The translations under genes and the position numbers were made by a program. The notes under the pieces are model-generated. The model searched no databases, had not been told where the DNA came from, and saw only the letters and a program-made list of their open reading frames with translations. From assembly GCA_963674965.2 (NCBI GenBank), contig CAXXFL010000006.1, positions 448,001-512,000 on the forward strand: a stretch of 64,000 nt of DNA, read 5' to 3'. This document shows positions 14,201-34,542 of the stretch, piece by piece. How positions within the stretch are numbered: the stretch's first letter is position 1; every line of letters starts with the position of its first letter. The DNA is from a bacterium. Lineage in GTDB: Bacteria > RBG-13-61-14 > DATKZS01.

Positions 14201-15450
14201 TGGGCGTAGGGGATGGCCCCCACGATGGCGTCTATTATTTCCTGGTCCGTGGGCGGCGGAATCTCCACCACCGGCTTGGGGGCGTTGCCGCTACTGTCAC
14301 AGCCGAAATAAACCACGTACTGGGTCGAGTAGTTGCCGTCATTGGTAAGCCTGCCGCTCCAGTCCCAGGTCCAGTATTTCCCTCCCCAGGCGTTCTCGAG
14401 CGGATAGTCTCCCCGAATCTCACGGAAGGTCGTTCCCGCTCCGTCCCATGTGGCCGGGCACCAGTATTCCTTTTCCTTGCCCGCCACGTGCATGTCCAGC
14501 CAGTCCTGCCAGGATATCTTGTTCTGCTCGATAAGCAGGGCCGTGCTTCCCGCGGGCAGGCTGGCGTCGTTGGCCAGGTTGGTCATGACCTCATCGTAGA
14601 GGATAAACCTGGGAGTATCGTTACTATAGTCGGGGGTCGTTTTATTCGGTATATATCCCGCGCTCCAGTTCCAGTTGGCGAAGAAAAGCTCGCCCCGGCG
14701 CCAGGTACCCCACGGGTCCTGGTACCAGCGGCTTCCATCGGCGGAACGGTACTGCACGGGCACAACGTAGTCGGGAAGAAATTCTCCGGCCGGCGCTCCC
14801 TGTTCCTCATACTTCCAGTAGGCTATTAAGGCGTCGTAAAAGGTCATGGCCCCCGAGTCGGAGCAGTCGGCGTACATCCATATCTCGCGCGTGCCGGAGG
14901 GCCCGTCGTCGTTGACCGTATGGTCGCCCATGAACTTGATGCACTCGGCGTCCATCTCGCGCAGGTATCCGTCAAGGGTGGACAGGGCGCCGAAAACGTC
15001 GCTGTCGTTCCTGGAAACGTCGTCGGGGCTGAGGAAAACGAAGGCCGTGCCCCCGTCGTCCGCGGTAAATGTGCCCCCCCCGACTTCATCGACCAGGAAG
15101 ACCCTGAGAAGGCCCTCGTCTATGTCGTCGAGCACGTTGTACTCGCCCTGGGTGGCGAGGTCGTAATGGGGAATGTAGACCTGGTCGCCCGTGAATCGGG
15201 TGGAACCGTCCGGAAAGTAGACGTACTGCACGCCCGACCCGGTGAGAACGGTGCGCACCACGTCCATCCTGGTCCCGTCGGATCCGCTGGCCCAGTTCAT
15301 ACTTCCCGAGGTGTCTATCATGAGCATGATGTTGGGCGCAACGCTGACGCCGGAGTAGAACGGAAGGTCCGCCGCCTGTCCCATGGCCTGGCCGGCGAAG
15401 AGCGCGGCGAAAAGGGCCGGGACCAACGCTAAAAGTTTATATTTTTTCAT
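11281..15450 (-). CDS. pilY1: Type IV pilus tip adhesin PilY1/PilC (vWA plus beta-propeller)
   Basis: Signal peptide; PNIMLMIDTSGSM MIDAS, TPIASAL, IFLTDG vWA motifs; GLLHAF, GEEMFAFIP, YGVDG, YFALDIT, LGQTWSKP, YIGDLDGRIWK propeller motifs; follows pilV-W-X. Confidence 0.92.
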   Translation of the reverse strand: MKKYKLLALVPALFAALFAGQAMGQAADLPFYSGVSVAPNIMLMIDTSGSMNWASGSDGTRMDVVRTVLTGSGVQYVYFPDGSTRFTGDQVYIPHYDLATQGEYNVLDDIDEGLLRVFLVDEVGGGTFTADDGGTAFVFLSPDDVSRNDSDVFGALSTLDGYLREMDAECIKFMGDHTVNDDGPSGTREIWMYADCSDSGAMTFYDALIAYWKYEEQGAPAGEFLPDYVVPVQYRSADGSRWYQDPWGTWRRGELFFANWNWSAGYIPNKTTPDYSNDTPRFILYDEVMTNLANDASLPAGSTALLIEQNKISWQDWLDMHVAGKEKEYWCPATWDGAGTTFREIRGDYPLENAWGGKYWTWDWSGRLTNDGNYSTQYVVYFGCDSSGNAPKPVVEIPPPTDQEIIDAIVGAIPYAQAVSSGDLPDEPHEFILDDSSGVRLDEYIRTAVGISGVSENDIDLTTPWFGPRDGNTLGGFFGSLYYDRAGFEDLGFLDTYKKVNYGVMAFRYNGEDFPRDSEGDDIGGKLMANVFAWSDFPAYAAYDKETLNEILQEYIASTSDLNPNGSTPIASALHDIYRYFFNDDLQAHVPRENYLFSSLSGYTGNHNMQYDLGYPTATGSENDHIIQDDPYYENGCRRNFLIFLTDGEQTDGEPLGYYTGSPSSSQVDSIILRQVQWVNWLKNGGDTDAPYPSITGVKSFFIGFGGDVSDPNTNGGKQLVSMAAASDMSDDPYDITEFFDADNKDGLITALGLIMNSIMKGQYVRSAPQVSISEGIILTTRFDIDGFYPLWKGNLYGWTLDIESDTPSYAWEDGDGGGNAAIMLNDRTPSSRNVFTAVPDGLGGLDKVDFTTSSASTLVDYFDPDEIFWGSNSSVRAQKAQKLIDFVNVEDGASFESSEIQVKWALGPVYHSAPIIVKNPSNFDYYSMPGYRDFALDNAGRPTIAYVGTMYGLLHAFAVKDISDFDGGEEMFAFIPPGVLDKLHYLRSGIQIYGVDGEPVAADVLDDNSTWKTVLISGLGGGGTEYFALDITDANSVAGSGDNVEPLWTFTDEHLGQTWSKPKVGFLYYKDGADVDLVNAAFFGGGMKPNHDDPDLGGYFYVIDALTGDLLKSFELPGADQVSGFDPLVYSGDTNMNEVPGSPILYDSDYNGSYDWAYIGDLDGRIWKFNFSDPDPDNWKRCLFFDSSDDPNTGGTGSEDNPNWRKPIWYHPRLVAGPNRTKLVYFYTGHVELSEVALDETVVNHMYALMDDDVPGSTACSYAEPIPEEISGDSALWPIEFEPGEKPITELAVVSGELWFKTYLPEQGSNPCDYGKVRLWALNYLTGEAVMEEGSYVEETEDRELSTSNFGESGGGLFDTSPEGEPELLKEPEFTPATPLSWGDEIIQ

Positions 15451-15500
15451 GACCATCCCTCCTTGTATAGGTCTTTTCATTTGCCTTGAAACCCTCATAT

Positions 15501-16049
15501 TCAGTCTATCGCGGCCTTGGCCTGCGCAATTACCTCGACGGTGCGGGAAATAACGGGCGAACCCAGTCCCGCTCCTCCAACCCTGACCACCCCGGTGGAC
15601 CGGACGATGAACTGGCCCTTGGGGCTGGAGACGTCAAGGGCCTCTCCAGCGTCGGCAAACCCCTTGGCTATGCCGCCCTCCGGGTCCGCGTTGAGGACAA
15701 CAACCGTGAACTGGAGGTGGTCCTGCGCGGTCCGGGCGGTGTTGTTCGTCGAATCGAGAGTCACCAGCACCGACGAGGTGTTGCCGTCCATAAGGGCCGC
15801 CCCGATGTTGGTCTGGCCTATGCCCACGAGGCCCGAGTCGCTGGCCGCCCAGGCCATGCCCACCATGACTCCCTCCTCGGCCGCGGAAAGGGCCTCCTCC
15901 GCGAGGCGCAGGTTCCGCGAGGAGTGGATGTCGATGGTCGAGACGCTTATAAGCCCGAAACCCAAAAAGGTGAGCACCAAAAGGAAGATGATGGCCACGA
16001 AAAGAGCTTGTCCCTTTTGGCCTTGCGATGCTTTTCTCGAAGTGTTCAT
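15501..16049 (-). CDS. pilX: Minor pilin PilX
   Basis: KG|QALFVAIIFLLVLTFLG prepilin-like start lacking Glu5; ALSAAEEG motif; position between pilW and pilY1. Confidence 0.88.
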   Translation of the reverse strand: MNTSRKASQGQKGQALFVAIIFLLVLTFLGFGLISVSTIDIHSSRNLRLAEEALSAAEEGVMVGMAWAASDSGLVGIGQTNIGAALMDGNTSSVLVTLDSTNNTARTAQDHLQFTVVVLNADPEGGIAKGFADAGEALDVSSPKGQFIVRSTGVVRVGGAGLGSPVISRTVEVIAQAKAAID

Positions 16050-16077
16050 GATATTTCTCCTTTCCTCGCGCCCATGT

Positions 16078-17160
16078 TCAGGGCGTGCATCCCACTATCT
16101 GGCAGTCGAAGGACTCGACGCTCAGGTTTCTCGGCTTGACCGTGGTGGAGAACCTTCTCCTGATGGGCCGGTCCTCATCCCGGAACTTGTCCGACCGGGT
16201 CCAGAGGCTGACCGTCACCGACCTTAACCGGCAGGGGTTGCAAAGTATGCCTTCCTCCGCCATGATTTCCCCGGCCGACAAGGCGGCCTTGGTCGCGTTC
16301 GCGTTCCGGTAGGTCACCTGGAAATCGTCCACCCCCCGGGCCAGGATAAGGTTCTGGTCATCGTCGTCCAGGTCGCAGCCCGCCGCCGTGCAGTTGCACA
16401 TGTAAAGGTTGTATTCCTTATTGCCCCGGTCGTCGGTCTCGTCGGTGTTGACGTAATAAACGCGCCGGTAAAAGGGAGAGATGATGGCCTTATTGCTCAC
16501 GGCGGTACTGAAGGCGCCGCTGATGGTTATCAAGTCTCCCGAGACCGAGGATATCTCGTACATGTTGGAGCTGAATCCCTCGGAGACCACCAGCCAGCCG
16601 GGCTTGTTGAAATCTGAGGCGTCCGTGAACATGGCCCCGTCCCCGGAAAGAACGGTAATGCTGTTGGTCCCCGCCCCGGCGCCAAAAGTGGGGTAAGTGG
16701 TCTGGCGCTGGAAATTGCCCCATATCTCGACGGCGTCGGTATATTCATCTCCTCCCCCCCGGGAGGAGTTGGCGTTGGTTTTAATATCGTTACCCAGGGT
16801 CACGGACTCGCTGACGCCCACGATGACGCTGTTGCCGTTCTTGACGCTTATCACGGGGTATACCTGGTTGGGGTTAATGGGGTTGGCCAGGTTGGCCACG
16901 CCGCGGGGGGCCCCCGTAAAGCCGGCCATTCGGAGGTCGCGGGCGATCATATAAAGGGCCATACGGGCCGAGGCCTGGCTCCGGGCCAACTCGGACTGGG
17001 TCTGGAAGGTCTTGGACTGGTCGGTGAACACGCTGACCATGGCCGTGAGCACGATGGCGGAGATGACCAGGGCGATGAGGAGCTCGATCAGGGTAAAACC
17101 GCTTTTACCGCTTTTTCCCATTGGATTGTTTTTCATGCCGATCATTTTTCCACTCCTCAC
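16078..17160 (-). CDS. pilW: Minor pilin PilW (exact start uncertain among several Met)
   Basis: SG|FTLIELLIALVI prepilin motif; IARDLRMAGF motif; LARGVDDFQVTY near the C-terminus. Confidence 0.9.
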   Translation of the reverse strand: MRSGKMIGMKNNPMGKSGKSGFTLIELLIALVISAIVLTAMVSVFTDQSKTFQTQSELARSQASARMALYMIARDLRMAGFTGAPRGVANLANPINPNQVYPVISVKNGNSVIVGVSESVTLGNDIKTNANSSRGGGDEYTDAVEIWGNFQRQTTYPTFGAGAGTNSITVLSGDGAMFTDASDFNKPGWLVVSEGFSSNMYEISSVSGDLITISGAFSTAVSNKAIISPFYRRVYYVNTDETDDRGNKEYNLYMCNCTAAGCDLDDDDQNLILARGVDDFQVTYRNANATKAALSAGEIMAEEGILCNPCRLRSVTVSLWTRSDKFRDEDRPIRRRFSTTVKPRNLSVESFDCQIVGCTP

Positions 17161-17795
17161 ATGTTATATTGCGTGGTGCTCTCGATAACCACGTGATGGG
17201 CGCCCATGCTCCTGAAGGCGGAGAAGCTCCAGTCCTGCTCGAGGTTGACGCTGGCCGGCCTGTCCTTGGGGTTCTCCCACCAGATGACCTCGACCGTGAT
17301 GAGAAGCTGGCCCGGGGCCGGGATGGGAATGTTGGTCACGTCCAGCGCGGCGGTACTGGCCCCTCCGTTCTCGATCGTCCAGCGAAGGTAATACCTGGTG
17401 TCGATCCCGCCATCGGCCCTGGTCCGCCCGAACTCGTCCACCGGGTCCGAGAAGTAATGCCAGTCCGAGGGAAGGCCGTCGCCCGCCGCGACGGTCCGGT
17501 TCGAGTTCGAGTTGTCGTCAAGGTAATGGTTCAGGTTGGGGTTGTCGTCCCTGATGACGGCCCCATCAACGTAGGGAGCGTCAGTGGGGCGAGTATGGTC
17601 GAATGGCAGGGCTTTCAGAAACTCCATTTGCCGCTGGGCGAGCTGGGTCGCCGCCGTCATGTGCTTGCTGAACTGGATTCCCCTGATGGCGGCGACCTGG
17701 AGCTGGGCTATGGCCAGAAGACCCACCGCGAGAACCACCAAGGCGAATAAAACCTCGATGAGGCTGAACCCGCCGTCCCTTTGTCTACTCCTCAT
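17157..17795 (-). CDS. pilV: Minor pilin PilV
   Basis: GG|FSLIEVLFALVVLAVGLLAIAQLQ; ATQLAQRQMEFLK; AGGAGG RBS before ATG 17795. Confidence 0.88.
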   Translation of the reverse strand: MRSRQRDGGFSLIEVLFALVVLAVGLLAIAQLQVAAIRGIQFSKHMTAATQLAQRQMEFLKALPFDHTRPTDAPYVDGAVIRDDNPNLNHYLDDNSNSNRTVAAGDGLPSDWHYFSDPVDEFGRTRADGGIDTRYYLRWTIENGGASTAALDVTNIPIPAPGQLLITVEVIWWENPKDRPASVNLEQDWSFSAFRSMGAHHVVIESTTQYNM

Positions 17796-17892
17796 TACGT
17801 CCGGCCTCCTTTGCGATTTATTTGGCACGTTATTTCCAAATGTTTCCGATTTATTACGCTTTTTCATGTCTACCCTTTCGCATAACAGGACA

Positions 17893-17908
17893 AGCACCTT
17901 TTGTGCCA
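17893..17908 (-). promoter_or_regulatory. sigma54 promoter for pilV-W-X-Y1
   Basis: Minus strand TGGCACAAAAGGTGCT (GG-N10-GC) about 100 nt upstream of pilV, with a long AT-rich region upstream. Confidence 0.7.
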
Positions 17909-19007
17909 AAGACCATCATTGATTTTCATATTTAATTTATTCCAATATTACAGCCTCTTACATGATAACGCCAAGACCGAACAAACGGTAAAAATGAACT
18001 TTTTGCATACCTTTTCCTGGACTGAAATAATGACGGATTTTAAAGATGAATCCAAAGCTTGATTTAGACGTCGAAATTTTGAACGAGGATTCAGTAAAGG
18101 AAACGGGCGTTTTGCCACCCTTCATGGCGGCGTTAATGTAAGCCATTAATATTAATAATAAATTACCAAGCGATAAAAATGCCCGAATAAAATGGGGGAC
18201 AAAAACAAAAAGGCATAAACCGGAAAGTAAAGCGGACCGAATTACTCCGCAAATTTTTCATAGTTGTTCTAAGCGAAAAATCTCTAAAATGGGAATCTCA
18301 AGGGGTTTGACAAGAACATTCGATGAATGCCATCACAAAAACAGCTTTTGTCCGCATTATAAGCCAGACGTTTTTCTCGATTTAAAGAAACATATTTTAT
18401 AAATTATTTCAATAACTAAAGCAATAAATAAATTCTTTCCCGGCCCTTCCCGTATCCATTGTAAATCCGAAGCGCAAAGCCTTTTATCCGACACTTTCGT
18501 TACCATGAAAATATTTCATACTCATTTTAAACGCTTTAAAGCCGAACAACGCGTTCTTTTGAATTTAACCCGCCGCTTTTATAAAAGGTGGCTTTCCATT
18601 CGGGCACAGCCAAGAGGTCCGGCCTTTGAACCATCATCCGGACGAGACGCGGATCGGTCATATGATTGCGAGTTTTTTGGCGCTCCAGCTTGAACTGGAT
18701 TTGCAACGTCGGATCGAGGAAAGAACCGGCGCGCCGATCGCCCGGATGGAAAACCCATGATTCATACCGATCGTTAAAATAAGCCCCTCCGTCCCGCTTC
18801 CCATCCGAAAATCACGGACCTCAAATCAAAGCAAAACCAAGACCGAATATACCCCCAAGTCCCGGCGATGAAAAAGCCAATCTTCCATGCAAAGATACAG
18901 GCGCCGGAGGCCGCGGAACTTTAGCCCCGGCAAGCGGTAACGCCGGCGCGACGCCCGGCGTGGTATTGACGACCCGGCCAAAGTATAATAGGGCAAATTG
19001 AAAAGGA

Positions 19008-24573: not shown

Positions 24574-24800
24574 ATGCCGAGGGGCGTTGGAGTTGGCGGT
24601 GACCGGGCCAGGTTTTGGCGGGGGAAGTTGCGGGAGCATAGTTGGAGCGGCTTGTCGGTGAGCGCGTTTTGCCGGCGGGAGGGATTTTCGCCCGGCAGTT
24701 TTTATCGGTGGCGGCGGATTCTTGCGGAGCGTGATGGCGTTATTGAATCGCGGGGTTGTTTGCCCGCGCCCGGCCCGGCGGAGGCTTTCGTTCCGGTTTC
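24574..24800 (+). pseudogene. tnpA: IS66 TnpA N-terminal fragment
   Basis: FWR...SGLSVSAFCRREGFSPGSFYRWRR...AFVPV HTH pattern; AGGAGG RBS. Confidence 0.85.
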
Positions 24801-25514
24801 GATTACACCCGGACCCGGGAGCGCGCCGGCCCGGAAAAGTTTTTGGCGGGATTTGAAGGATACCTTCAGGCCGACGCTTATTCCGGTTACGACAAACTTT
24901 ACGAGCCCTCTCCAGGCGTCCCGGGCAAGGTGATCGAGGTCGCATGCTGGGCGCACGCGCGGCGCAAGTTCGTCGAGTCAGAAACGAGCGATTCCTCGCG
25001 CTCGCTGACGGCGGTCGCGTGGATCAAGATTCTTTACGAGGTCGAGAAAGAAGCCAGGGAAGCCGGGCTTTGCGCGGAAGAATTTCGCGAAATTCGTCGG
25101 GAAAAAAGCAGGCAATTACTCGAGGATTTTGGCGAGTGGCTGCGCGGCCAGCGGGCGGAGGTCCTTCCCAAGAGCCCGATCGGCCAGGCCATCGCCTACG
25201 CGCTTAGCAACTGGGCCGCGCTTTACCGCTACGCGGACGACGGCGATCTGGCCATCGACAACAACGCCGCCGAGCGCGCCCTTCGCGGGGTCGCGGTTGG
25301 CCGCAAGAACTGGCTCTTCGCGGGCGGCGACCGGGGAGGCCGTACCGCCGCTATCCTCGCCAGCTTCACCCAAACCTGCAAATCCCTCGGCGCCGACCCC
25401 TTCGCCTACCTCCGCGAGGTCCTCGCCCGCATCGCCGGCCACCCCATGAAAAATCTCTCCGACCTCCTCCCAGATCACTGGCAGGCCGAACAAGACCAAG
25501 CCCACCAAACATAA
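24798..25514 (+). pseudogene. tnpC: IS66 transposase TnpC C-terminal fragment
   Basis: GYLQADAYSGY, CWAHARRKF, PKSPIGQAIAY, IDNNAAERALR.VAVGRKNWLF. Confidence 0.93.
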
Positions 25515-25593: not shown

Positions 25594-27225
25594 AATAATA
25601 ATACGTTAAATTAAGATCATAGGCTTCTCCAATAAAGAAATGGTCAATTAAAGTAACGCCCGCTCTATCTAACAAACTCCCGAAGGCAAAGTAAAAAAAG
25701 GTGTCCGTTACTGAACCAATAGTAGAGGTCAATGCCTTAGTGGAACCAAGACCATTATAATGGAAGAACGAGACCTCGGCCTTTTCCTGACAGATCAGAT
25801 CGTCTCCAAATGTATAAGCACTTTTTAAACCTGCTCCGCGTCGGTTTCGCGGAGGGCTTGGGAGTAGCCGGTCTGGTTGTTGTTGTCGATGAGGAAGCGG
25901 GTGACGCCGTCGGGCGTCCGCTTGTATATGCGCTCGCCGCGGAAGTCGTAGGCGTAGGCGGCGGCGAGGGCGGCGTCCTTGTCGGCGCGGGCCATCTTGT
26001 TTTCGAGGTCCCATTCGTATTGCCACGTCTCGCCCGGCCCGGCCTTGCCGGCCATATTGCCATTATCGTCCCACGCGTAGGACGTGACTCCCGAGGCCGC
26101 CGACTCGGTGAGGAGCCTGTCGTTCGCGTCGTAGGCGTAGGCCGTGACCAGGCCGCCCGCGTTCATCTCGAGGCGGTTCCCGAAGGCGTCGTAGTCGTAC
26201 TCGATCCAGTAGGTACGGTCGGGCTCGGGGGAGGTCCGCGCCTCGCGGGTGAGACGATACAAGTCGTCATACCCGTAAGCGCACTCGTCCTCGATCACCG
26301 GCCGCTCGGCCGTGTCGCCCTCCGCCTCCTTCGGCTCGCGGTAGCGCTCGATGATCCCCGTCCGGTTCCCCGCCGGGCCAAGCGTGTACTCGTAGCTCGA
26401 TATCAGCCCGCCCGGCCCCGAGTTCTCGAGGTAGGTCAGGCGGTTCAACTCGTCGAACTCGTATGTGGCCAGCGTCCCGTTCGGATAGGCCATGCTCTTT
26501 CGGTTGCCCACCGCGTCGTAGGCATACTGCGTGATTCCGTTGTCGTCGGTCACGGTCGCGAGGCGGCCGAGCGCGTCGTGGGCGTAGGTCACCACGTGCC
26601 CGCCCGAGTAGGCCGTCTCGATAAGGGCCCCGGCGATATCGTACTTATAGGCGATATACTGCCCGTCCTCCTTGTCGTCGCGGAGGAGCTGCCCGGTGAC
26701 GTCGTCGTAGGTGAAGACGCGGTCCCGATACGGCTCGCCCGCGCCGAACTCGTAGCCAATATAAATCACGCGGACGAGCTGGCCCCGGCCGTTGTATTGG
26801 CGGCCGATGGTCTTGCCGTCCGGATAGGTCCGGAGGGTCTCGCGCTTCATCTCGTCGAACTCGTAAATGACGGTCCGGCCGTTGAAGTCGGTATGGGACG
26901 AGGCCATGCAGCAGTCCCGGTATTCCCACGTCTCGGCCATGCCCTCGGGCAGGGTCCGCGAGGTCTTGCGGCCAAGCTCGTCGTAAGTAAAGGAGGTAAC
27001 GTGCCCGTTGGGATCGACGATCGAGAGCAGGTCCCCACCCGCGTCGTAGGCATAGCGGGTCTCTCCCCCCTCGGCGTCGTCCACCCCGATGAGGCTACCC
27101 ATCTCGTCGTAAAGAAACTCGGTCCTCACGCCCGCCTGGTCCACCTCGGCCACCTTCCTCCTCGAAAGCCGCTTATACCTGATATTATCCCTTACTTCAT
27201 TATTTTCTATAGATATACACCTCAT
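25594..27225 (-). pseudogene. RHS/YD-repeat module 3: long core fragment, frameshifted near 25825 and cut by IS66 before its C-terminal domain
   Basis: Many YD repeats (YAYDAGGDL, FTYDELGR, YAYDAVGNR); continues in another frame as AYTFGDDLI...FFHYNGLGSTKALT...FIGEAYDLNLTYYY, ending at the IS66 end. Confidence 0.88.
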
Positions 27226-27262
27226 TTAATAGGTCTAGCTATTTTAAAATATCTGTGAAGCT

Positions 27263-27778
27263 CTATTTAGTATATAATATATTGATATTATCAGTATCAT
27301 GGATAATACTTAGTTCGATTAGATAATATCTGCTATGCTCAAAAAGGTATAAACGATTACCACAGTTTCTAAATATAGCAGGGAAAGAATTTCGGGTCAT
27401 TTCGGAATCAAAGATAAAAACGGCATATTTATTTTCAGTAAAATGGCTTGTAAATGGTACAATTGTTGCTTCTGCCCAATTAAAGGTGCTGTCATTACTT
27501 GTGTCATATATCGCTATCTCACTAGAATATAATAATATATCAGACCTAATTTTAATCACTCTAACTATGTCGTTATTATCACATATTACATGTATTTTAT
27601 AAAGCGGGTTATACTTATGCCATAGAGTAATGTATCCTTTGTATTGTGAAACTGGACGTTTAATTATACAGTTTAATTGCTTTTTTAACATAATGACATC
27701 GATTAATATATATAATATTACAATAGTAGAGGTGACTAAAAAGAGTTTTTTTAATCTTGTTTTATTATTAGATATCAT
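27263..27778 (-). CDS. Putative immunity/partner protein of RHS module 1 (N-terminal TM, AT-rich)
   Basis: Starts 5 nt after the RHS-CT stop with a GAGGA RBS; low GC; shares the LYxxID...LWxxYNPLY block with 30828-31355. Confidence 0.75.
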   Translation of the reverse strand: MISNNKTRLKKLFLVTSTIVILYILIDVIMLKKQLNCIIKRPVSQYKGYITLWHKYNPLYKIHVICDNNDIVRVIKIRSDILLYSSEIAIYDTSNDSTFNWAEATIVPFTSHFTENKYAVFIFDSEMTRNSFPAIFRNCGNRLYLFEHSRYYLIELSIIHDTDNINILYTK

Positions 27779-27782
27779 TGTA

Positions 27783-28565
27783 TTAGTCCTCAACGTACCT
27801 GTTATATACATTTTCCCAATCAGGATTGATGTCTAATGCTTTGTTGTTTTTAGCATCCCATTTATAGATATCATAGAGAGGATCAGTAAATACAATAGAC
27901 CTTCTGTTAGGAAATTTAGCCCCCCATGAAGCTGGATTACCATGTGCATTATATAATGGATCGAATTCTTGGATCATACATATTTCCCAGCATGCTTTTG
28001 AATAGGTGATATTTTCAATGCCATCTTGAAGAATTGGATCATTATTATTCATTTCAGAATATCTGAGCTTAGAAAAAGCGCTACTCATCCTTGCTCTATT
28101 ATTAGCTGGATTGATTTCTACAATACAAGCACACGTCAATAGCAGATTTGCATTGCTTTGACATTGTGCTGGAGTCCCCATACAAATCTGAGGCCCTTCG
28201 ATGTATATAGTAGCTTTAACGCTGTAAATAGGCGCGCTCTTGATAAATGAGGAAATACAGCTACTTAAAATTGCAATCACAATTATAATTATAACAACAG
28301 CTATCAAAAGTTCCATCAATGTAAAAAAGCCTGAAAAATCCGTAAGTATAATTGGATTATTGTTTACATATGAATATTTATTAAGTGAGGAAGACATGTA
28401 ATACACGCCATAAAAAGGATCGAGAGACGCGAATATCCCATTCACCGGATCATACAACCTCGCCCTCAGATAGTAATACCCTATATTGAAATCGTAGGCC
28501 TCGCCGGTGAAGAGATGTGAGAATTCGGTCGTGCCGGTCCTGGCGAGTATTTGGCCGAAGGCGAG
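27783..28565 (-). pseudogene. RHS module 1, 3' part: core end plus C-terminal domain starting with a pilin-like helix (separated from its 5' part by IS3)
   Basis: FTGEAYD...YYYLRARLYDPVNG.F.SLDP...Y.Y..NNP...TDFSG core signature followed by F-FTLMELLIAVVIIII. Confidence 0.88.
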
Positions 28566-28814
28566 TGTCCTGGTTCAGCGGGAAATGGAGTACCCCCGCT
28601 TTTGCTAAGTGAGTACGGCCTTCGCACTCACCCTCAAGATTCCGCCCTTCGGGCGGGAGTTTTAAGAAGGCATTGGGGGTCTATCGTTTGATGAGTTTAG
28701 GCCGGGCGCTGAGGGTGTTCCCCAACGCCCTCTCATCAACGCGATGAGCCCCGCCGGGCTATCCCTCGGCGGGTTGCTCTCCAGCAGTGCCCGCCTCTGT
28801 TTCACCCGGCAAGC
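28566..28814 (-). ncRNA. Candidate structured non-coding RNA in the IS3 3' end
   Basis: About 250 nt with no plausible ORF after the orfB stop, almost fully covered by nested helices; expression not shown. Confidence 0.4.
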
Positions 28815-29810
28815 TCAGGCTACTCCAACCGCCAACGCCATGTCAAGCCCGCCGCGTTCGACCATCCGCCGCCGCTTCCGCTCTTCCCGCGCCGCTTCCA
28901 GCTTCAGGTCCCGAGCCGCCCAAATCTCCGCCTCCCGGCCAGCCAGTTTGTCCGCCGGCGCAATGTAACCGATCGCGCTGTGCAACCGCACGTTGTTGTA
29001 ATGCTCCACATACTCGCCCACGATCCGTTTGGCCTCATCCAAACTAAGCGGCGTCTTCGGACGGATGCATTCCTTCTTCAGCGTTTGATACCACCGCTCC
29101 TTCTTGCCGTTGCTTTGCGGATAGTACGGCGAGGTCCGAACATGCGTCATCCCGCTCACTCGGATGAACTCCTTGAAATCCCGGGCGATGAACTGCGGCC
29201 CATTGTCCGAGATGATGCGAGGCCGAGCAGCCGGATACTTCTCCTTCGCCCGCTCCAGGATCACTTCAACCTCCCACTCCTTCATGCTCTCTCGAATGTC
29301 CCAGTGGACCAGGTAGCGGCTTTGGCCGTCAATCACGCTGAACAGGTAATAAAACGTCCCGCAAATATTGATGTGGCTCACGTCAATGTGCCAGTGTTCA
29401 TGCGGCCTTTCGGGCTGCTCGAAACCCGTGCCCTTCAGCGACGGCTGGCCCGAAAACCGACCCAGCAAACCCGCTTCCGACAGCACCCGGTAAACGCTCG
29501 CCGGAGACACGCATACCAGATTCTCATCAAGCATCATGAACGCCAGCCGGCGGTAACCCTCCAGCGGGTGATCGAAATGATAGCGGATGATCGCCTGCTT
29601 CTCCCAATCCAAAAGCCAATGGTCCCGAGGGACCTTGCCGTTGTGCTCGTTGGCCAGGCCGTAGCGCTTCTTCCAGTCGTAGTACTTCGAGCTCGATATC
29701 CCCAGCCAATCGATCAGACGGGCCGCCGGAAGCTCCGCGCGGGAAAGCCAGTAGCCGACGTAGTCAACCACCTCGTCCCGCGTGTCGGGGGGGACCCATG
29801 CGGCCCTCAG
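28815..29810 (-). CDS. IS3 OrfB DDE transposase/integrase core (translated by -1 frameshift from OrfA)
   Basis: WHIDVS, IISDNGPQF, YPQSNGKKERWYQTLKKE, YNNVRLHSAIGY..P. Confidence 0.95.
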   Translation of the reverse strand: MRAAWVPPDTRDEVVDYVGYWLSRAELPAARLIDWLGISSSKYYDWKKRYGLANEHNGKVPRDHWLLDWEKQAIIRYHFDHPLEGYRRLAFMMLDENLVCVSPASVYRVLSEAGLLGRFSGQPSLKGTGFEQPERPHEHWHIDVSHINICGTFYYLFSVIDGQSRYLVHWDIRESMKEWEVEVILERAKEKYPAARPRIISDNGPQFIARDFKEFIRVSGMTHVRTSPYYPQSNGKKERWYQTLKKECIRPKTPLSLDEAKRIVGEYVEHYNNVRLHSAIGYIAPADKLAGREAEIWAARDLKLEAAREERKRRRMVERGGLDMALAVGVA

Positions 29811-30115
29811 AGGTCCCCAAGCTCTTTTTTTAACTTGACGTGGTCCTCCATCAGCTCTGAAATCACCTCGTCCTTCTTCCGAAGCTTGGCTTCCAGCGCC
29901 TCGATCCGCTCTGCCTCGCGCCGCTCCGGCCGGGAGGGCTGCCGTTCGAAGGCCGCCGCGCCGTTTTCAAAGAACTGCTTCTGCCAGTTGTAGAACTGGG
30001 TCGGCTGAATCCGCTCCTGCTCGCAAAGCTCCGACACTGCCACCTTGTCAACCAGGTGCCGCCTCAGCACCCGAACCTTCTCCTCCGCCGTAAATCTTCT
30101 TCGTCTCCCTTCCAT
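29807..30115 (-). CDS. IS3 OrfA (HTH plus leucine zipper)
   Basis: RRRFTAEEKVRVL...VSELC...QFYNWQKQF; A7G slippery site at 29824-29831 at its 3' end. Confidence 0.93.
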   Translation of the reverse strand: MEGRRRRFTAEEKVRVLRRHLVDKVAVSELCEQERIQPTQFYNWQKQFFENGAAAFERQPSRPERREAERIEALEAKLRKKDEVISELMEDHVKLKKELGDL

Positions 30116-30183
30116 CGTCCCGCCTCCTTCTCGATATAACTATCCTCGCGGAGGCGTTCTCCATTTTCAACTGAGGCAGGACA

Positions 30184-30748
30184 CGAGGTAGTCGACGGCG
30201 TCGGTGACGTCTCCGGCGATGGAGGTGAGGGCGCGGGTGGAGCCGAGGCCGTCGTAGTGGAAGAAGGAGACCGCCCCGGCTCGGGTCTGGCTGATGAGGT
30301 CGTCGCCGAAGGCGTAGGCGGCAAGCTCCGCGCCGGAGGCGTTTGTCTCGCGGGCCACCTGCGAGTATCCAGTGCGGTTGTTGTTGTCCACCAGGTAATT
30401 CACGCTCTCCCCCGGAGTCGTTTTCCTTATCCGCTCGCCCCTGTAATCGTAGGCGTACTCCGCCTCGAGGGCGCCGTCCTTCTCGGCCCTCGCCATCTTA
30501 TTATCACATGTCCACTCGTAAACCCAACTCCCCTCGGGGCCCGCCTTCCCCGCCATGTTGCCATTATCGTCCCAACTATAAGACGTAACCCCCGCCCCCG
30601 AGGATTCGGACAAAAGCCGGTCGTTGCCGTCATGGGCGTAAGTCGTCACCGCCCCGCCCGCGTTCATGGACTTCCTGTTCCCGAAGGCGTCGTAGTCGCT
30701 CTTGAAAAAGATGTCTCCACAATTTGCCATAAAAATTCTCACGTACAA
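30184..30748 (-). pseudogene. RHS module 1, 5' part (core fragment interrupted by IS3)
   Basis: YDAFGNR, YAHDGNDRL, YSWDDNGNM, FFHYDGLGSTRALT; near-identical to 32085-32545. Confidence 0.9.
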
Positions 30749-30827
30749 TTTAGTGACACTACTAAAAGTAAATTAAAATGACCTGCTCGCTATGCTCGCC
30801 CACATAGGCGAACAATGAATTACCTGT

Positions 30828-31355
30828 TTAGTCATAATTTATTATTGATGTTCTATAATATATTTTTTTATTTGAACGATTCCAGATATAAAATACTTTT
30901 CTTTTATTATTATTGTCATAGGCATAATGCCAGCATATTTGAATATTTGTATTGAATCGCCACGTGATAAGATTTGTGTGAGGCCATATTTCGTAGCTAC
31001 TATGATGTATCTTTCCGTGATCCTCATCCGCGTAAAAGAAGATATTATTTAAGCCAATAAATGACTTGCCATCGTATTCGTAATACCTTATATTTTTTTT
31101 ATATGTGGAGTACAGAGGATTATATCTGTACCATAATATAAGATTTTTATCAATCGTAGATATATTTTTATTAATTGATGTTTTCGCTTGAGTAATGCCG
31201 CATAAAATATCTATTGCGGTGTACAATGTAAATATAAATGTCAAAAACGCCGCGATATAGTATTTATATTTATAAATAGTCTTACCAATCCTCTCCAGTT
31301 TTATCAAGATATAGTCTATTCCAGTTATCAATTGATTTGAACTCTGTGTTTCCAT
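30828..31355 (-). CDS. Putative immunity/partner protein of RHS module 2 (start uncertain)
   Basis: Overlaps the RHS-CT stop; very AT-rich; TM segment then LYTAID...LWYRYNPLY, paralogous to 27263-27778. Confidence 0.7.
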   Translation of the reverse strand: METQSSNQLITGIDYILIKLERIGKTIYKYKYYIAAFLTFIFTLYTAIDILCGITQAKTSINKNISTIDKNLILWYRYNPLYSTYKKNIRYYEYDGKSFIGLNNIFFYADEDHGKIHHSSYEIWPHTNLITWRFNTNIQICWHYAYDNNNKRKVFYIWNRSNKKIYYRTSIINYD

Positions 31356-32545
31356 CTTTTTTATTTACCTCCAATGTTCCAATCTTATCTGGTTTCTCAT
31401 TATTCAGAAAATGAACTTTTTCATTGTCCGGCAGAGTGACTCCCCAGCCCTCAGTTAAAGAAAGGTCTTCAACAAGCGGCCCATAGCAGTATTTGTAACA
31501 TGTAGCAATACAAGCATCCTGTATGCTAATCTCATCGCCTAATTGACTGCCATAATTATCATGCATATCTCGAGTGTAATCCATGTACCTTTCTTTAATA
31601 TTGTATGCCGAGATATTCTCTCTATGATATCCGATTAAACAAAAACGTTCAGCAGTATATTCTGCTTCTATTTTGATAATATCTGGGTTTCGTAAGGCAA
31701 TTGCACTTGCACCACCAGTCGCTTTATAAAGAGGACGCGCTGTAATATTATATTTTCTGGTGTCCTGCCAAGATTTGGCACAAGGTAGGGCCAAAAGGAC
31801 TAATATGGTAAGAACTATTAATATAACTGCAAGTTTAATAAGATTAAAATAGCCTGATAAATCTGTAAATAAAATAGGATTATTGTTTACATATGAATAT
31901 TTATGAAGAGAGGAAGACATGTAATACACGCCATAAAAAGGATCGAGAGAAGCGAACATCCCGTTCACCGGATCATACAACCTCGCCCTCAGATAGTAAT
32001 ACCCTATATTGAAATCGTAGGCCTCGCCGGTGAAGAGATGTGAGAATTCGGTAGTGCCGGTCCTGGCGAGGATTTGGCCGAAGGCGAGGTAGGTGACGGC
32101 GTCGGTGACGTCGCCGGCGATGGAGGTGAGGGCGCGGGTGGAGCCGAGGCCGTCGTAGTGGAAGAAGGAGACCGCGCCGGCGCGGGTCTGGCTGATGAGG
32201 TCGTCGCCGAAGGAGTAGGCGGCAAGCTCCGCGCCGGAGGCGTTTGTCTCGCGGGCCACCTGCGAGTAACCAGTGCGGTTGTTGTTGTCCACCAGGTAAT
32301 TCACGCTCTCCCCCGGAGTCGTTTTCCTTATCCGCTCGCCCCTGTAATCGTAGGCGTACTCCGCCTCGAGGGCGCCGTCCTTCTCGGCCCTCTCCATCTT
32401 ATTATCACATGTCCACTCGTAAACCCAACTCCCCTCGGGACCCGCCTTCCCCGCCATGTTCCCATTATCGTCCCAACTATAAGACGTAACCCCCGCACCC
32501 GAGGATTCGGACAAAAGCCGGTCGTTGCCGTCATGCGCGTAAGTC
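31282..32545 (-). CDS. RHS orphan module 2: 5'-truncated core plus C-terminal domain with a pilin-like helix
   Basis: Open frame with YYYLRARLYDP...DP...NNPILFTDLSG then Y-FNLIKLAVILIVLTILVLLALP; core similarity begins abruptly at about 32545, with no clear start. Confidence 0.85.
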
Positions 32546-32812
32546 TACGGAAAGGATGGCTTTTAAAAGATTTTTCGGCCATGAAAGGGCTGGACAAGCG
32601 GCGACTTGGATTGGCGACGCGCGGCAAGGTTCGCCCTTCATGGACGGGGAAGAAATTTTCGGCTACGGCTACTCAAAGGGTAAATCCCTTCGGTCTTTTT
32701 TGCAGACCTCCATGAGCCGAACATCCCAAGTTTTCCAAAATGGGGAAGTCCACCTCTCGCTCCCTTGCCAGTTCCCTCGGGATAATCGTAAACTTATCTG
32801 GAAGGGACCTTT

Positions 32813-33559
32813 ATGAAAGACGACTGGTACAAGGATTTTTTCGAGGGCGTGGCCCTGGATTTCTGGCGCCAGGCCATGCCTCCTCTTCAGACGGGGGTCG
32901 AGGCCGACTTTATCGTGGACGCGCTTTCGCCGCCCAAGGGGGGAAAGCTGCTGGACTGCCCCTGCGGCGACGGCCGGCACATGGCCAAGCTGGCCTCCCG
33001 CGGCTTCCGGGTCACGGGGGTGGACGTCTCGCGCTATTGCCTGGAGGCGGCCCGGGCCCGGCTCGAGGAGGCCGGGCTTTCGGACATGGCCGATCTTGTC
33101 CAGGCCGACATGACGGACATGGACGTGGGCGAAGGTTACGGCGGCGCCTATTGCATGGGCAACAGCTTCGGCTACCTGGACCGGGGCGCCATGGATCGCT
33201 TTCTCGGCGCGGTCAGCCGGTCCCTGTTGCCGGGGGCCGGGCTGATACTCGAGACGGCCATGGCGGCGGAGAGCTTCTTCCCCACCTTCCAGGAGCGCGA
33301 CTTCATGAAGGTGGGCGACATAACCCTGCTCATGCGGCACGAGTACCACCCCGGCCAGAGCCGCCTGGACACGGAGTACACCTTCATCCGGGACGGCGAG
33401 GTCCAGGTCCGGGGCTCGCGCTACTGGATTTTCACCATGGGCGAGATAAAGAGGATGATCGGGAAGGCGGGCATGAAGATGGACGCCGTCTTCGGCGCCC
33501 CCGACAAAAGACCCTACCGCCTCGGCTCCCCCGCCGCCCTGATCGTGGCCAGGAAATGA
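32813..33559 (+). CDS. Class I SAM-dependent methyltransferase
   Basis: LLDCPCGDGRH motif I, VTGVDVS, QADM, GNSFGY. Confidence 0.92.
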   Translation: MKDDWYKDFFEGVALDFWRQAMPPLQTGVEADFIVDALSPPKGGKLLDCPCGDGRHMAKLASRGFRVTGVDVSRYCLEAARARLEEAGLSDMADLVQADMTDMDVGEGYGGAYCMGNSFGYLDRGAMDRFLGAVSRSLLPGAGLILETAMAAESFFPTFQERDFMKVGDITLLMRHEYHPGQSRLDTEYTFIRDGEVQVRGSRYWIFTMGEIKRMIGKAGMKMDAVFGAPDKRPYRLGSPAALIVARK

Positions 33560-33822
33560 CGCGGGAGATAAAATGGAAGAGCAATATCAAGAGAATGGAA
33601 GCGGGGAAGATATTCCTCCCGTACACCCTCCAGCCTCGCGCGATGAGGAAGACCAATCCGGCGGTCCTCAATGGCTGATTGCCTTTGCGCGGACTATCTT
33701 CATCAATTTTCTGATGTTGGGAGGAGTTGTCCTGTTTCTGTCCTTCTTGCGTGAGTTTGGAATATTCACTTTTGGAGAACCGGGCGGAATGGGCAAGGCT
33801 GATTTTAAAGGAGGAGAAAATA

Positions 33823-34542
33823 ATGGCGTATCGGAAAATCTTATTAAGGCCTGTTCACGTGACCATTTCATGTCTTTTTATCATCTTACTTATGCTATTC
33901 GCTGGGCCTTCATGCAGGATGATGTGCATGAAACCGGACAGGGATGGAATCTTTGAAGATACCGACTTCTCTCATCCTCTCCATAAGGCGGCCGCCCTTG
34001 GCCAAGTTGAGGAATGTAATAAAATCCTCGACCAGGGAGTTGACGTTAATTTATTGAACAAAGGCAAGCGGTCTCCTCTTCACATGGCCGCGATCACTGG
34101 CCGGCGGCAGGTGGCGGAATTGCTTATCGAGAGAGGAGCTGATATTGAAATGCAAAATCCATTCAAGGAGACGCCTCTTCAGTTAGCGGCGGAATACGGC
34201 AAACTTGATACCGTTAAGCTGCTCGTTGAAAAAGGCGCTAACCTTGAAGCGAGTAACTGGTTCGGAAGCACGGCCTTGCATAACTCCATTGGGAAAGGCC
34301 ATGACGAAGTTGCTATTTTTCTGATCGAAAATGGCGCGGACATTAACGCGCTCAATAACGCCAAGCAAACGCCCCTGGCCAGGGCCGCTCTTTTCGACAG
34401 GCTGAAGATAGCTGAAGCGCTTATCGAGAAAGGCGCCAAGGTAAATACCATTGACGAATACGGCAAAACTCCCCTCCTTACCGCCAAAGACGGCGGAAAA
34501 GAAGAAATGGTCAAGTTGCTCAGAAAGCACGCGTTCAAATAG
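33823..34542 (+). CDS. Ankyrin-repeat protein with N-terminal signal/TM segment
   Basis: About six ANK repeats (PLHKAA, SPLHMAA, TPLQLAA, TALHNS, TPLARAA, TPLLTA); GGAGG RBS before ATG 33823. Confidence 0.92.
   Translation: MAYRKILLRPVHVTISCLFIILLMLFAGPSCRMMCMKPDRDGIFEDTDFSHPLHKAAALGQVEECNKILDQGVDVNLLNKGKRSPLHMAAITGRRQVAELLIERGADIEMQNPFKETPLQLAAEYGKLDTVKLLVEKGANLEASNWFGSTALHNSIGKGHDEVAIFLIENGADINALNNAKQTPLARAALFDRLKIAEALIEKGAKVNTIDEYGKTPLLTAKDGGKEEMVKLLRKHAFK

Follow-up and report, generated by a model that had tools for sequence, protein, structure and literature searches.

The question raised by this locus is whether the cargo released by an RHS protein may begin like a mature type IV pilin and, if it does, what such a start might be for. 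The locus lies in a 64,000-nucleotide stretch of a bacterial genome (assembly GCA_963674965.2, contig CAXXFL010000006.1, positions 448,001 to 512,000; hereafter the window, whose own numbering is used below). It comprises two RHS modules on the minus strand, module 1 and module 2, in each of which the end of an RHS core runs into a short cargo (CT1 and CT2, respectively; Table 1). An earlier note on this DNA had proposed that self-cleavage of the core would release both cargos as pilin mimics. From sequence comparisons, a significant resemblance to pilins is supported for module 1 and at the level of the RHS clade to which both modules belong. We see about an even chance that the helix at the start of these cargos is a shared N-terminal module by which released cargo inserts into or is anchored in a membrane, and that it is built like the alpha1-N helix of pilins.

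The open reading frames (ORFs) of the two modules were read from stop to stop. That of module 1 (28574..27783) passes from core to cargo as ...NNNPIILTDFSGF|FTLMELLIAVVIIIIVIAILSSC and that of module 2 (32544..31282) as ...NNNPILFTDLSGY|FNLIKLAVILIVLTILVLLALPC. The strings quoted in the earlier note and the positions 28325 and 31848, at which the codons of the first cargo phenylalanine start, are exact on the minus strand, and both aspartates are retained as it had said: both Asp and the Gly of the bipartite aspartyl-protease motif are kept in both modules. Gly stands at position -2 and F or Y at position -1, and the Pro of the second DPxG motif is replaced by F or L, as it is in 12 of 145 relatives (see the census below). 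The match to Rhs_assc_core (TIGR03696) extends to residue 82 of the module 1 ORF and to position 75 of the 76 in the profile, which makes F84 the residue that directly follows the core. A cut one residue after the Gly, as had been assumed, also agrees with two reports. In P. laumondii Rhs1, D1338 of the second DPLGL motif is catalytic and the toxin begins at A1343 (PMC8636562), and Tse5 is cut between L1168 and I1169 (PMC10684867); in a third report, the density of BiTLP stops at L2144 (PMC13018210). By analogy, autoproteolysis is predicted to take place one residue past the invariant Gly and would leave F1 at the new N-terminus, in the register of a mature pilin.

Counted from this predicted N-terminus, module 1 has F1, T2, L3, E5 and L6, and 23 uncharged residues follow E5. 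Its match to the Pfam family N_methyl (PF07963) reached 11.2 bits (E 0.29; cut-off 21.2) and placed residues 84-103 on profile positions 7-26; in the real minor pilins of the window, profile position 7 is the mature F1. The score against TIGR02532 was 7.8 bits, below the cut-off of 16.3, several NCBIfam pilin models likewise began at residue 84 (E 0.07-3), and the best match in PDB was the pilin PilE1, with residues 1-31 on 1-31 (E 0.78). Generic membrane families match module 1 equally well or better, for example EMC3_TMCO1 with E 0.0088, and the evidence from this single sequence is thus weak alone. A hidden Markov model (HMM) made from residues 1-24 of the ten prepilins of the genome was weighed by rank, with filters off, among the 51,083 six-frame ORFs of at least 60 aa. 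The ten training pilins came on top (25-40 bits) and module 1 was rank 11 of 51,083 (12.2 bits), with HMM position 1 on F84; ranks 18 and 42 were two further RHS junctions of the genome, both in exact register. Judged in this way, the start of the module 1 cargo appears truly pilin-like, beyond chance. Module 2 has F1 and a Lys at position 5; it gave no N_methyl match at E up to 10 and no match of the pilin HMM at its junction, and its start does not seem distinguishable from a generic membrane helix. The proposal of two pilin-like starts thus held for module 1 and not for module 2.

Like alpha1-N of type IV pilins and of the pseudopilins of type II secretion systems (T2SS), the cargos of the clade present F1, S/T2, L/I3, E5 and L6 in the same register from a free N-terminus, and then a hydrophobic helix with I12, I13, I15, L16, A17, I19, A20 and a Pro peak at 22. 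Unlike alpha1-N, their N-terminus would arise by the predicted RHS autoproteolysis; conservation of F1 and E5 is partial, and cargo scores lie below the family cut-offs. All HMM scores of the window modules are under the curated pilin thresholds, compared with 34 and 28.7 bits for the real minor pilins of the window. The short basic leader and the Gly at -1 of a prepilin peptidase site are absent: the helix lies inside the RHS polypeptide and the Gly is at -2, so prepilin peptidase would not be involved. With no pilin head domain found either, membership of the modules in the pilin family fails on these sequence criteria. A recent fusion with the genome's own pilin genes was also considered; it looks unlikely because the DNA of the cargo helices is AT-rich (25-28% G+C), as judged without a DNA comparison to the pilin genes.

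At the level of the clade, the resemblance was examined with profiles made from cargos alone. An ungapped HMM of the first 24 residues of 145 foreign cargos, in which no pilin was included, ranked two major type IV pilins 1 and 2 among the 51,083 ORFs of the genome (12.4 and 10.9 bits; E 0.097 for rank 1), with HMM position 1 on their mature F1, and module 1 fourth. After removal of the 38 most pilin-like cargos, the profile of the other 107 still placed a major pilin first and in register, a weak (7.5 bits) but consistent result. A MAFFT profile of the 145 cargo starts gave 31 matches at E up to 10 among 177,635 distinct PDB sequences, and the first 22 were all type IV pilins or pseudopilins (best E 2e-5, 28.4 bits; E-values of such short hydrophobic profiles need caution and the rankings are more robust). 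They included Geobacter PilA, PAK pilin, PpdD, gonococcal and meningococcal pilins, GspG and MshA, and were followed by PsaK and CydC, with E above 1.6. The column of the cargo F1 is at profile position 14-15, and 16 of the 22 pilin chains had their residue 1 or 2 there. The register was scanned in addition with a position-specific scoring matrix of pilins, with the composition of the cargos as background. Shift 0 was best for positions 1-6 (-4.97 versus -10.2 or worse) and also for positions 7-22 alone (-13.2 versus -15.0 for the next best).

The genome holds 31 matches to Rhs_assc_core, which by reading of their junctions form three subfamilies. A census by regular expression had given 6 core ends versus the 31 obtained with TIGR03696, and these 6 make up one subfamily, to which the window modules belong. 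Its cargos start with FTLMEL, FTLFEL, FTIYEI, (Y)SLIEIM, FNLIKL and MPSLIS, each followed by a hydrophobic helix, so that FT[LI]xE[LI] plus such a helix opens three of the six (3-4 of 6 when the (Y)SLIEIM of the main gene is counted). Two other junctions of the subfamily had sub-threshold N_methyl matches, one of 14.1 bits (E 0.036, in register) and one of 9.0 bits. The pilin-type motif was found in 0 of the 24 junctions of the other two subfamilies, where the starts are unrelated and mostly polar (one truncated Rhs_assc_core match was excluded from this count), and in 0 of 14 RHS junctions from five related genomes, though several of these are hydrophobic. The caveat that came with the pilin proposal, namely that hydrophobic helices are common after DPxG, thus seems true in general but does not extend to the pilin-type start, which appears to be specific to one subfamily.

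The full-length RHS protein of this subfamily, 2,900 aa long, is encoded about 370 kb from the array on the same contig. Its cargo consists of (Y)SLIEIM, two hydrophobic segments and matches to PT-TG (21.1 bits) and EndoU (20.3 bits), both just below cut-off. A cut directly after the Gly would again put Glu at position 5 in this protein. No PAAR or VgrG domain was found in it, nor in the full-length relatives scanned, which have N-terminal regions of the adhesin type (cadherin-like, FG-GAP, Big, PKD, SLH, Transglut_core, DUF6531). By this domain make-up, the window array would belong to a surface-type RHS subfamily that does not use a type VI secretion system (T6SS). Two RHS junctions of a related genome (L011 and L016; G012:C106) read ...DPTGH|AFLEALAISLAIIFAAVAIISLP; their hydrophobic helix is displaced from the pilin register by one residue, its Glu being at position 4 and its Pro at position 23.

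Foreign relatives were collected with the RHS part of module 2 alone as the query, the cargo being excluded to avoid bias. Among 1.84 billion representatives there were 118,112 matches at E up to 1e-3, and the census was built on the best 150 of these. The cut was mapped in 149 of the 150 by local alignment of the last 90 core residues, one row remaining unmapped. Two rows from the genome itself and two whose sequence ran on for fewer than 40 residues past the cut were set aside, which left 145 cargos. All 145 relatives carry D at -5 and G at -2, and residue -1 (P1) varies (L 30, E 22, N 19, K 15, Y 15). After the cut, F1 was counted 70 times, S/T2 65, L/I3 71, E5 34, I12 45, L16 54 and A20 34. 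At any position from 1 to 28 other than 5, Glu occurs in at most 8 cargos, versus the 34 at position 5. Pro was counted 10 times at position 22, 8 times at 23 and no more than 3 times at any other position from 1 to 25, and Lys and Arg increase from position 26 on; the Pro peak and the basic residues look as at the end of a membrane span. The conservation of F1, E5 and P22 that the earlier note had named as a check is partial: F1 is found in about half of the relatives, E5 in about a quarter and Pro at 22 in 10 of 145.

Of the 145 cargos, 21 have the motif [FMLYW][ST][LIVM]xE[LIVMF] in exact register and 4 have it at +1; none has it at any other shift between -4 and +7. E5 and S/T2 are coupled, E5 being present in 30 of the 65 cargos with S/T2 versus 4 of the 80 without, which is what a capping box predicts. 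Altogether 38 cargos were classed as pilin-like, 21 by the motif and 19 by a pilin HMM score of at least 5 bits, with 2 by both. That score was reached by 2 of 145 reversed and 5 of 725 shuffled sequences, and a score of at least 8 bits by 8 real, 0 reversed and 1 shuffled. Single cargos, P0082 and P0086 for instance, copy the pilin helix through P22-x-Y24. When the 145 were scanned one by one against Pfam, N_methyl was the sole family to match more than one member (4 of 145, E up to 1). In many cargos S, A or G at positions 7, 11, 14 and 18 lie on one face of the helix, as in FSLISVSISVAIVGILASIAY and FTLIEINISISIQSTI.

What follows the helix differs between cargos. Three of 23 scanned relatives have a recognised cargo domain behind it, these being PT-HINT with an AHH nuclease, a colicin/pyocin DNase and an Aspzincin peptidase; in the other 20 of the 23 no recognised cargo domain was found. 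Since cargos as diverse as DNases, a peptidase and uncharacterised domains stand behind it, the helix is read as a shared module. Since it accompanies many toxins, keeps a fixed place at the new N-terminus and belongs to one RHS clade, it is read as a module of cargo delivery. Furthermore, the same kind of N-terminus stands ahead of unrelated toxins, including DNases that act in the cytoplasm, which argues for a generic delivery or insertion module rather than a dedicated poison of pili. In this subfamily and in a wide clade of relatives, the cut by the core's aspartyl autoprotease would fall one residue past the invariant Gly, and the encapsulated cargo, once released, would start with F-[S/T]-[L/I]-x-E-[L/I/M] and go on as a hydrophobic or Ser-striped helix. 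This helix would begin at residue 1, with S/T2 and E5 as a capping box and F1 and L6 as a hydrophobic staple. The combination of the two (hydrophobic, S/T-x-x-E, hydrophobic) is established helix chemistry. Glu5 could neutralise the free alpha-amine, so that the N-terminus could be buried, and the small residues on one face would serve the packing of helices. The design of about 20 apolar residues, then Pro or Gly, then basic residues would resemble a membrane span.

In CT1 and CT2 the helix would hold the Cys-rich toxin domain at the target's cytoplasmic membrane, on its outer face, and there the domain would meet a membrane-anchored immunity protein. This site of action is suggested by the Cys-rich domain together with the partner ORFs, which appear to be membrane-anchored. 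In a 2012 survey of polymorphic toxins, transmembrane or secreted immunity proteins accompany surface-acting toxins. In other cargos, such as the DNases and EndoU, the helix would begin entry into the membrane. Several points weigh against the reading of the helix as an insertion and anchoring module. The Lys at position 5 of module 2 departs from the proposed design, and at least 18 uncharged residues follow E5 in only 12 of the 34 E5 cargos, many of which are amphipathic and not membrane-spanning. A plain anchor needs no in-register likeness through positions 7-22, nor would it be expected to draw pilins as the first 22 PDB matches of a cargo-only profile, and both points leave room for a link to the pilus machinery. 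The AlphaFold2 model of CT2, based on a three-sequence alignment, is unusable (pLDDT, the predicted local distance difference test, 44.9), and the topology of the immunity-like ORFs was judged by eye only. Finally, we infer cleavage, membrane insertion, the site of action, toxicity and the function of the immunity-like ORFs from what was observed, which is sequences, register, statistics and distribution.

The pilin-led matches and the register beyond position 6 are those that true pilin mimicry would account for. Here, self-cleavage of RHS would yield a mature-pilin N-terminus independently of PilD, and the inner-membrane machinery of the target's type IV pilus or T2SS would handle the cargo. 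The cargo might be a poison subunit that blocks assembly or a hitch-hiker, or it might have the machinery for its receptor or translocon. Besides the PDB matches, the ranking of two major pilins by the cargo profile points in this direction, and so do the persistence of a pilin in first place without the 38 most pilin-like cargos (weak), the Pro peak at 22-23, the faithful copies in P0082 and P0086 and the standing of N_methyl as the sole repeated Pfam match. Pilus assembly is known to require E5, however, and neither this residue nor F1 comes close to being invariant in the cargos; module 2 has K5. Individual scores of 9.0-14.1 bits are under the Pfam cut-off and far from those of the window's minor pilins, a pilin head domain was not detected, unrelated enzymes stand behind the helix, and generic helix capping could explain the coupling of S/T2 to E5. 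A genetic link is lacking as well, the PilY1/X/W/V operon at 11281-17909 being set apart from the array by unrelated genes. On balance we hold pilin mimicry to be unlikely.

A second possibility is that the motif serves the RHS protein itself, as a preference of the autoprotease for residues P1'-P6' or as a segment that docks or packs in the shell, without a role after release and with a coincidental likeness to pilins. The tie of the motif to the cut site (21 in register, 4 at +1 and none at the other shifts tested) would be expected from this, as would its restriction to one subfamily (3-4 of 6 junctions versus 0 of 24 in the same genome) and the position of F1 within the block of DNA common to modules 1 and 2. 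However, P1 is highly variable, so the protease does not look sequence-selective, and F1 is missing from half of the clade and E5 from three quarters, yet D and G are invariant. Nor would such a role explain a 20-residue hydrophobic or Ser-striped helix and the match to pilins at the profile level, and we regard it as quite improbable. Least probable of all is that the helix is the toxin, with Ser-striped or small-residue helices oligomerising into pores in the target membrane as in Tse5-CT and with accessory domains behind them: the S/A/G face in many cargos and the known membrane-active RHS cargos (Tse5-CT and BiTLP-CTD) speak for it, but several cargos have recognised enzymes behind the helix, CT1, CT2 and P0013 conserve residues across a 160-aa domain, and a distinct immunity-like ORF follows each cassette.

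To return to the membrane-insertion module and what it would carry in the window, P0013 is an orphan-like RHS fragment of 490 aa found in a metagenome, and its C-terminus can be aligned with CT1 and CT2 from end to end; 17 columns of the alignment are invariant, among them three Cys and a WG pair. CT1 and CT2 appear on this alignment to be one rare toxin family, with P0013 as the sole other member found. A homologue search with CT1 at near lengths returned only CT1 itself, and one with CT2 within its 420-aa ORF only CT2 itself. Against longer proteins the module 1 ORF matched P0013, P0012 and P0159, the cargo domain being common to P0013 only, and a search for related loci in genome contigs gave two, in metagenome-assembled genomes of a Gammaproteobacterium and of a member of the Clostridia. 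Beyond the helix, no Pfam or NCBIfam domain and no globular pilin head were detected in CT1 or CT2. In a language-model look-up, which is to be taken as a lead only, the whole of CT2 fell near N_methyl/FimT/GspH clusters (21 of 30 matches, 0.94, 154 shared features); CT1 without its helix (residues 26-180) had no usable Atlas match. The immunity-like ORFs 1 and 2 are homologous to each other (BLASTP E 1e-5), with one membrane helix each, and matched no Pfam or NCBIfam family. If read from their first ATG they overlap the ends of the toxin ORFs, by 74 nt for ORF 2 and 29 nt for ORF 1; from its second ATG at 27778, ORF 1 would instead follow its toxin ORF after a 4-nt gap.

Table 1. Features of the RHS array and its flanks, in window positions, and the full-length RHS gene of the same subfamily, in genome positions
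Feature	Position	Strand	Remarks
IS66 transposase fragment	24756-25514	+	adjoins the third RHS fragment
Third RHS fragment	25825..27225	-	466 aa of YD repeats, 3'-truncated (...LRETDAEQV*); RHS_repeat 146 bits, 12 stretches
Immunity-like ORF 1	27263..27811	-	one predicted membrane helix; ATG at 27811, second ATG at 27778 just past the CT1 stop
Module 1 cargo CT1 (P0001)	27786..28325	-	180 aa; pilin-like helix FTLMELLIAVVIIIIVIAILSS at 28260-28325, then Cys-rich domain; stop codon 27783-27785
Module 1 RHS core end	28326..28565	-	...LAFGQIL...NNNPIILTDFSGF, both Asp positions; Rhs_assc_core 56.6 bits (cut-off 32.5)
IS3-family insertion sequence	28566..30184	-	orfA 29807-30139, orfB 28815-29966; HTH_Tnp_1; rve 71 bits
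Module 1 upstream RHS part	30185..30772	-	RHS_repeat 41.7 bits; broken by the IS3 insertion after ...DAVDYL
Immunity-like ORF 2	30828..31355	-	175 aa from ATG at 31355; one predicted membrane helix
Module 2 cargo CT2 (P0002)	31285..31848	-	188 aa; N-terminal hydrophobic helix FNLIKLAVILIVLTILVLLALP at 31783-31848, then Cys-containing domain; stop codon 31282-31284
Module 2 RHS fragment	31849..32544	-	232 aa, 5'-truncated, ends in core end ...NNNPILFTDLSGY; RHS_repeat; Rhs_assc_core 56.2 bits (cut-off 32.5)
Class I methyltransferase	32792-33559	+	directly beside the RHS array, upstream of 32544
Ankyrin-repeat protein	33727-34542	+	271 aa; adjoins the RHS array
Full-length RHS of the subfamily	C6:849626-858328 of the genome (L001:7626-16328)	-	N-terminal hydrophobic anchor, Transglut_core, Big_7, DUF6531, RHS repeats

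The modules as they stand in the window would not release these cargos, since both are 5'-truncated and module 1 is split by the IS3 element. Ahead of the cargo there is RHS sequence for only 232 aa in module 2 and about 280 aa in module 1. No full-length rhs start was found upstream of either module; upstream of module 2 there is instead the methyltransferase gene on the plus strand. A usable start for the orphan modules was not found either, and a promoter and terminator scan of 27000-33000 returned AT-rich consensus noise only. The lack of an upstream rhs start, the IS3 element inside module 1 and the IS66 fragment beside the array together lead us to read the cassettes as orphans, and both modules would be silent, 5'-truncated RHS toxin/immunity cassettes rather than complete toxins. 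The ends of the IS3 element, read from the sequence by eye, are GTGTCCTG...CAGGACA, with a CTC duplication at both flanks; inverted repeats of at least 14 bases were not found in it by a repeat finder. The G+C content drops to 0.25-0.35 within the cassettes, from a level of about 0.58. Modules 1 and 2 are near-identical in their DNA through the F1 codon (the aligned block has few mismatches) and differ beyond it, from residue 2 on.

This layout is like that of orphan rhs-CT/rhsI cassettes, as known from Salmonella Typhimurium (PMC3967940), with a 5'-truncated core piece homologous to the main gene, a divergent C-terminal toxin, a small immunity gene, a G+C content lower than that of the genome and insertion sequences nearby. 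Unlike those cassettes, which lie downstream of a full-length rhs gene, the window array is ~370 kb from its main gene, belongs by its domains to the surface type outside the T6SS and has a pilin-like cargo helix. The cassettes themselves would be ordinary orphan RHS modules with a rare, uncharacterised toxin/immunity family.

The helix may also have counterparts in function among known toxins. CdiA-CT toxins carry globular N-terminal domains for entry into the cytoplasm, which use specific inner-membrane proteins and are exchangeable between toxin domains. The cargo helix would likewise be a variable, exchangeable delivery module that opens the released piece, but it is a single helix. By description rather than by sequence comparison, it is also like P. 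aeruginosa Tse5-CT (PMC10684867) and Bacillus inaquosorum BiTLP-CTD (PMC13018210), which share the DPxG-type cut position. Both are hydrophobic cargos that act on the cytoplasmic membrane from its periplasmic or outer side; unlike the helix studied here, which starts at residue 1, the predicted membrane segment of BiTLP lies about 20 residues past the cut (PMC13018210).

The resemblance between RHS cargos and the pilin helix seems not to have been described. The earlier note knew of no RHS-delivered family of pilin mimics, and a full-text literature search likewise found no description of an RHS cargo with a pilin-like start, its sole match naming pilin in the title of a reference only. The word 'pilin' is absent from the first 300,000 characters of the 2012 survey and from the main text of the teneurin-like protein paper (PMC13018210), whose supplementary alignments could show such N-termini. 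Every single score is sub-threshold, for which reason standard annotation overlooks the feature, and this may be why it has not been described. The helix gives a handle on how the cargo of RHS and teneurin-like toxins outside the T6SS is delivered into or onto target cells: it would be a conserved, position-locked, toxin-exchangeable module that comes into being only when the protein cuts itself, and it shares its build with the helix that is most conserved in bacterial pili. Should the link to pili be true, it would constitute a new relationship between toxin and receptor and make pilus and secretion machines a new class of entry routes or targets for polymorphic toxins; if not, the same helix design would have arisen or been reused in two unrelated settings.

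Some further observations concern the surroundings of these genes. The minor-pilin operon of the window (11281-17909, minus strand) encodes a PilY1-like protein of 1,405 aa, a PilX-like protein and two prepilins (N_methyl 34 and 28.7 bits). Between this operon and the RHS array, ~8-10 kb away, are isoamylase, SIMPL-family and phosphoribosyltransferase genes and the IS66 fragment. P0006, the cargo of an orphan module on contig C1 of the same genome (L002:11380-12108), and P0082, which belongs to a 3,510-aa cadherin/FG-GAP RHS protein, have by eye common motifs after their helices, ..IAYIHG.. and ..(I/V)GH... Further RHS sites in the genome are found at C4:370-381 kb, C2:10-17 kb and C6:882 kb. 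Eight junctions of the array at C2:79-100 kb can be paired with eight of that at C6:735-750 kb by identical cargo starts, and each array has a ninth junction without a twin; the pattern suggests that a large block, made up of a main gene and about eight orphan cassettes, was duplicated recently.

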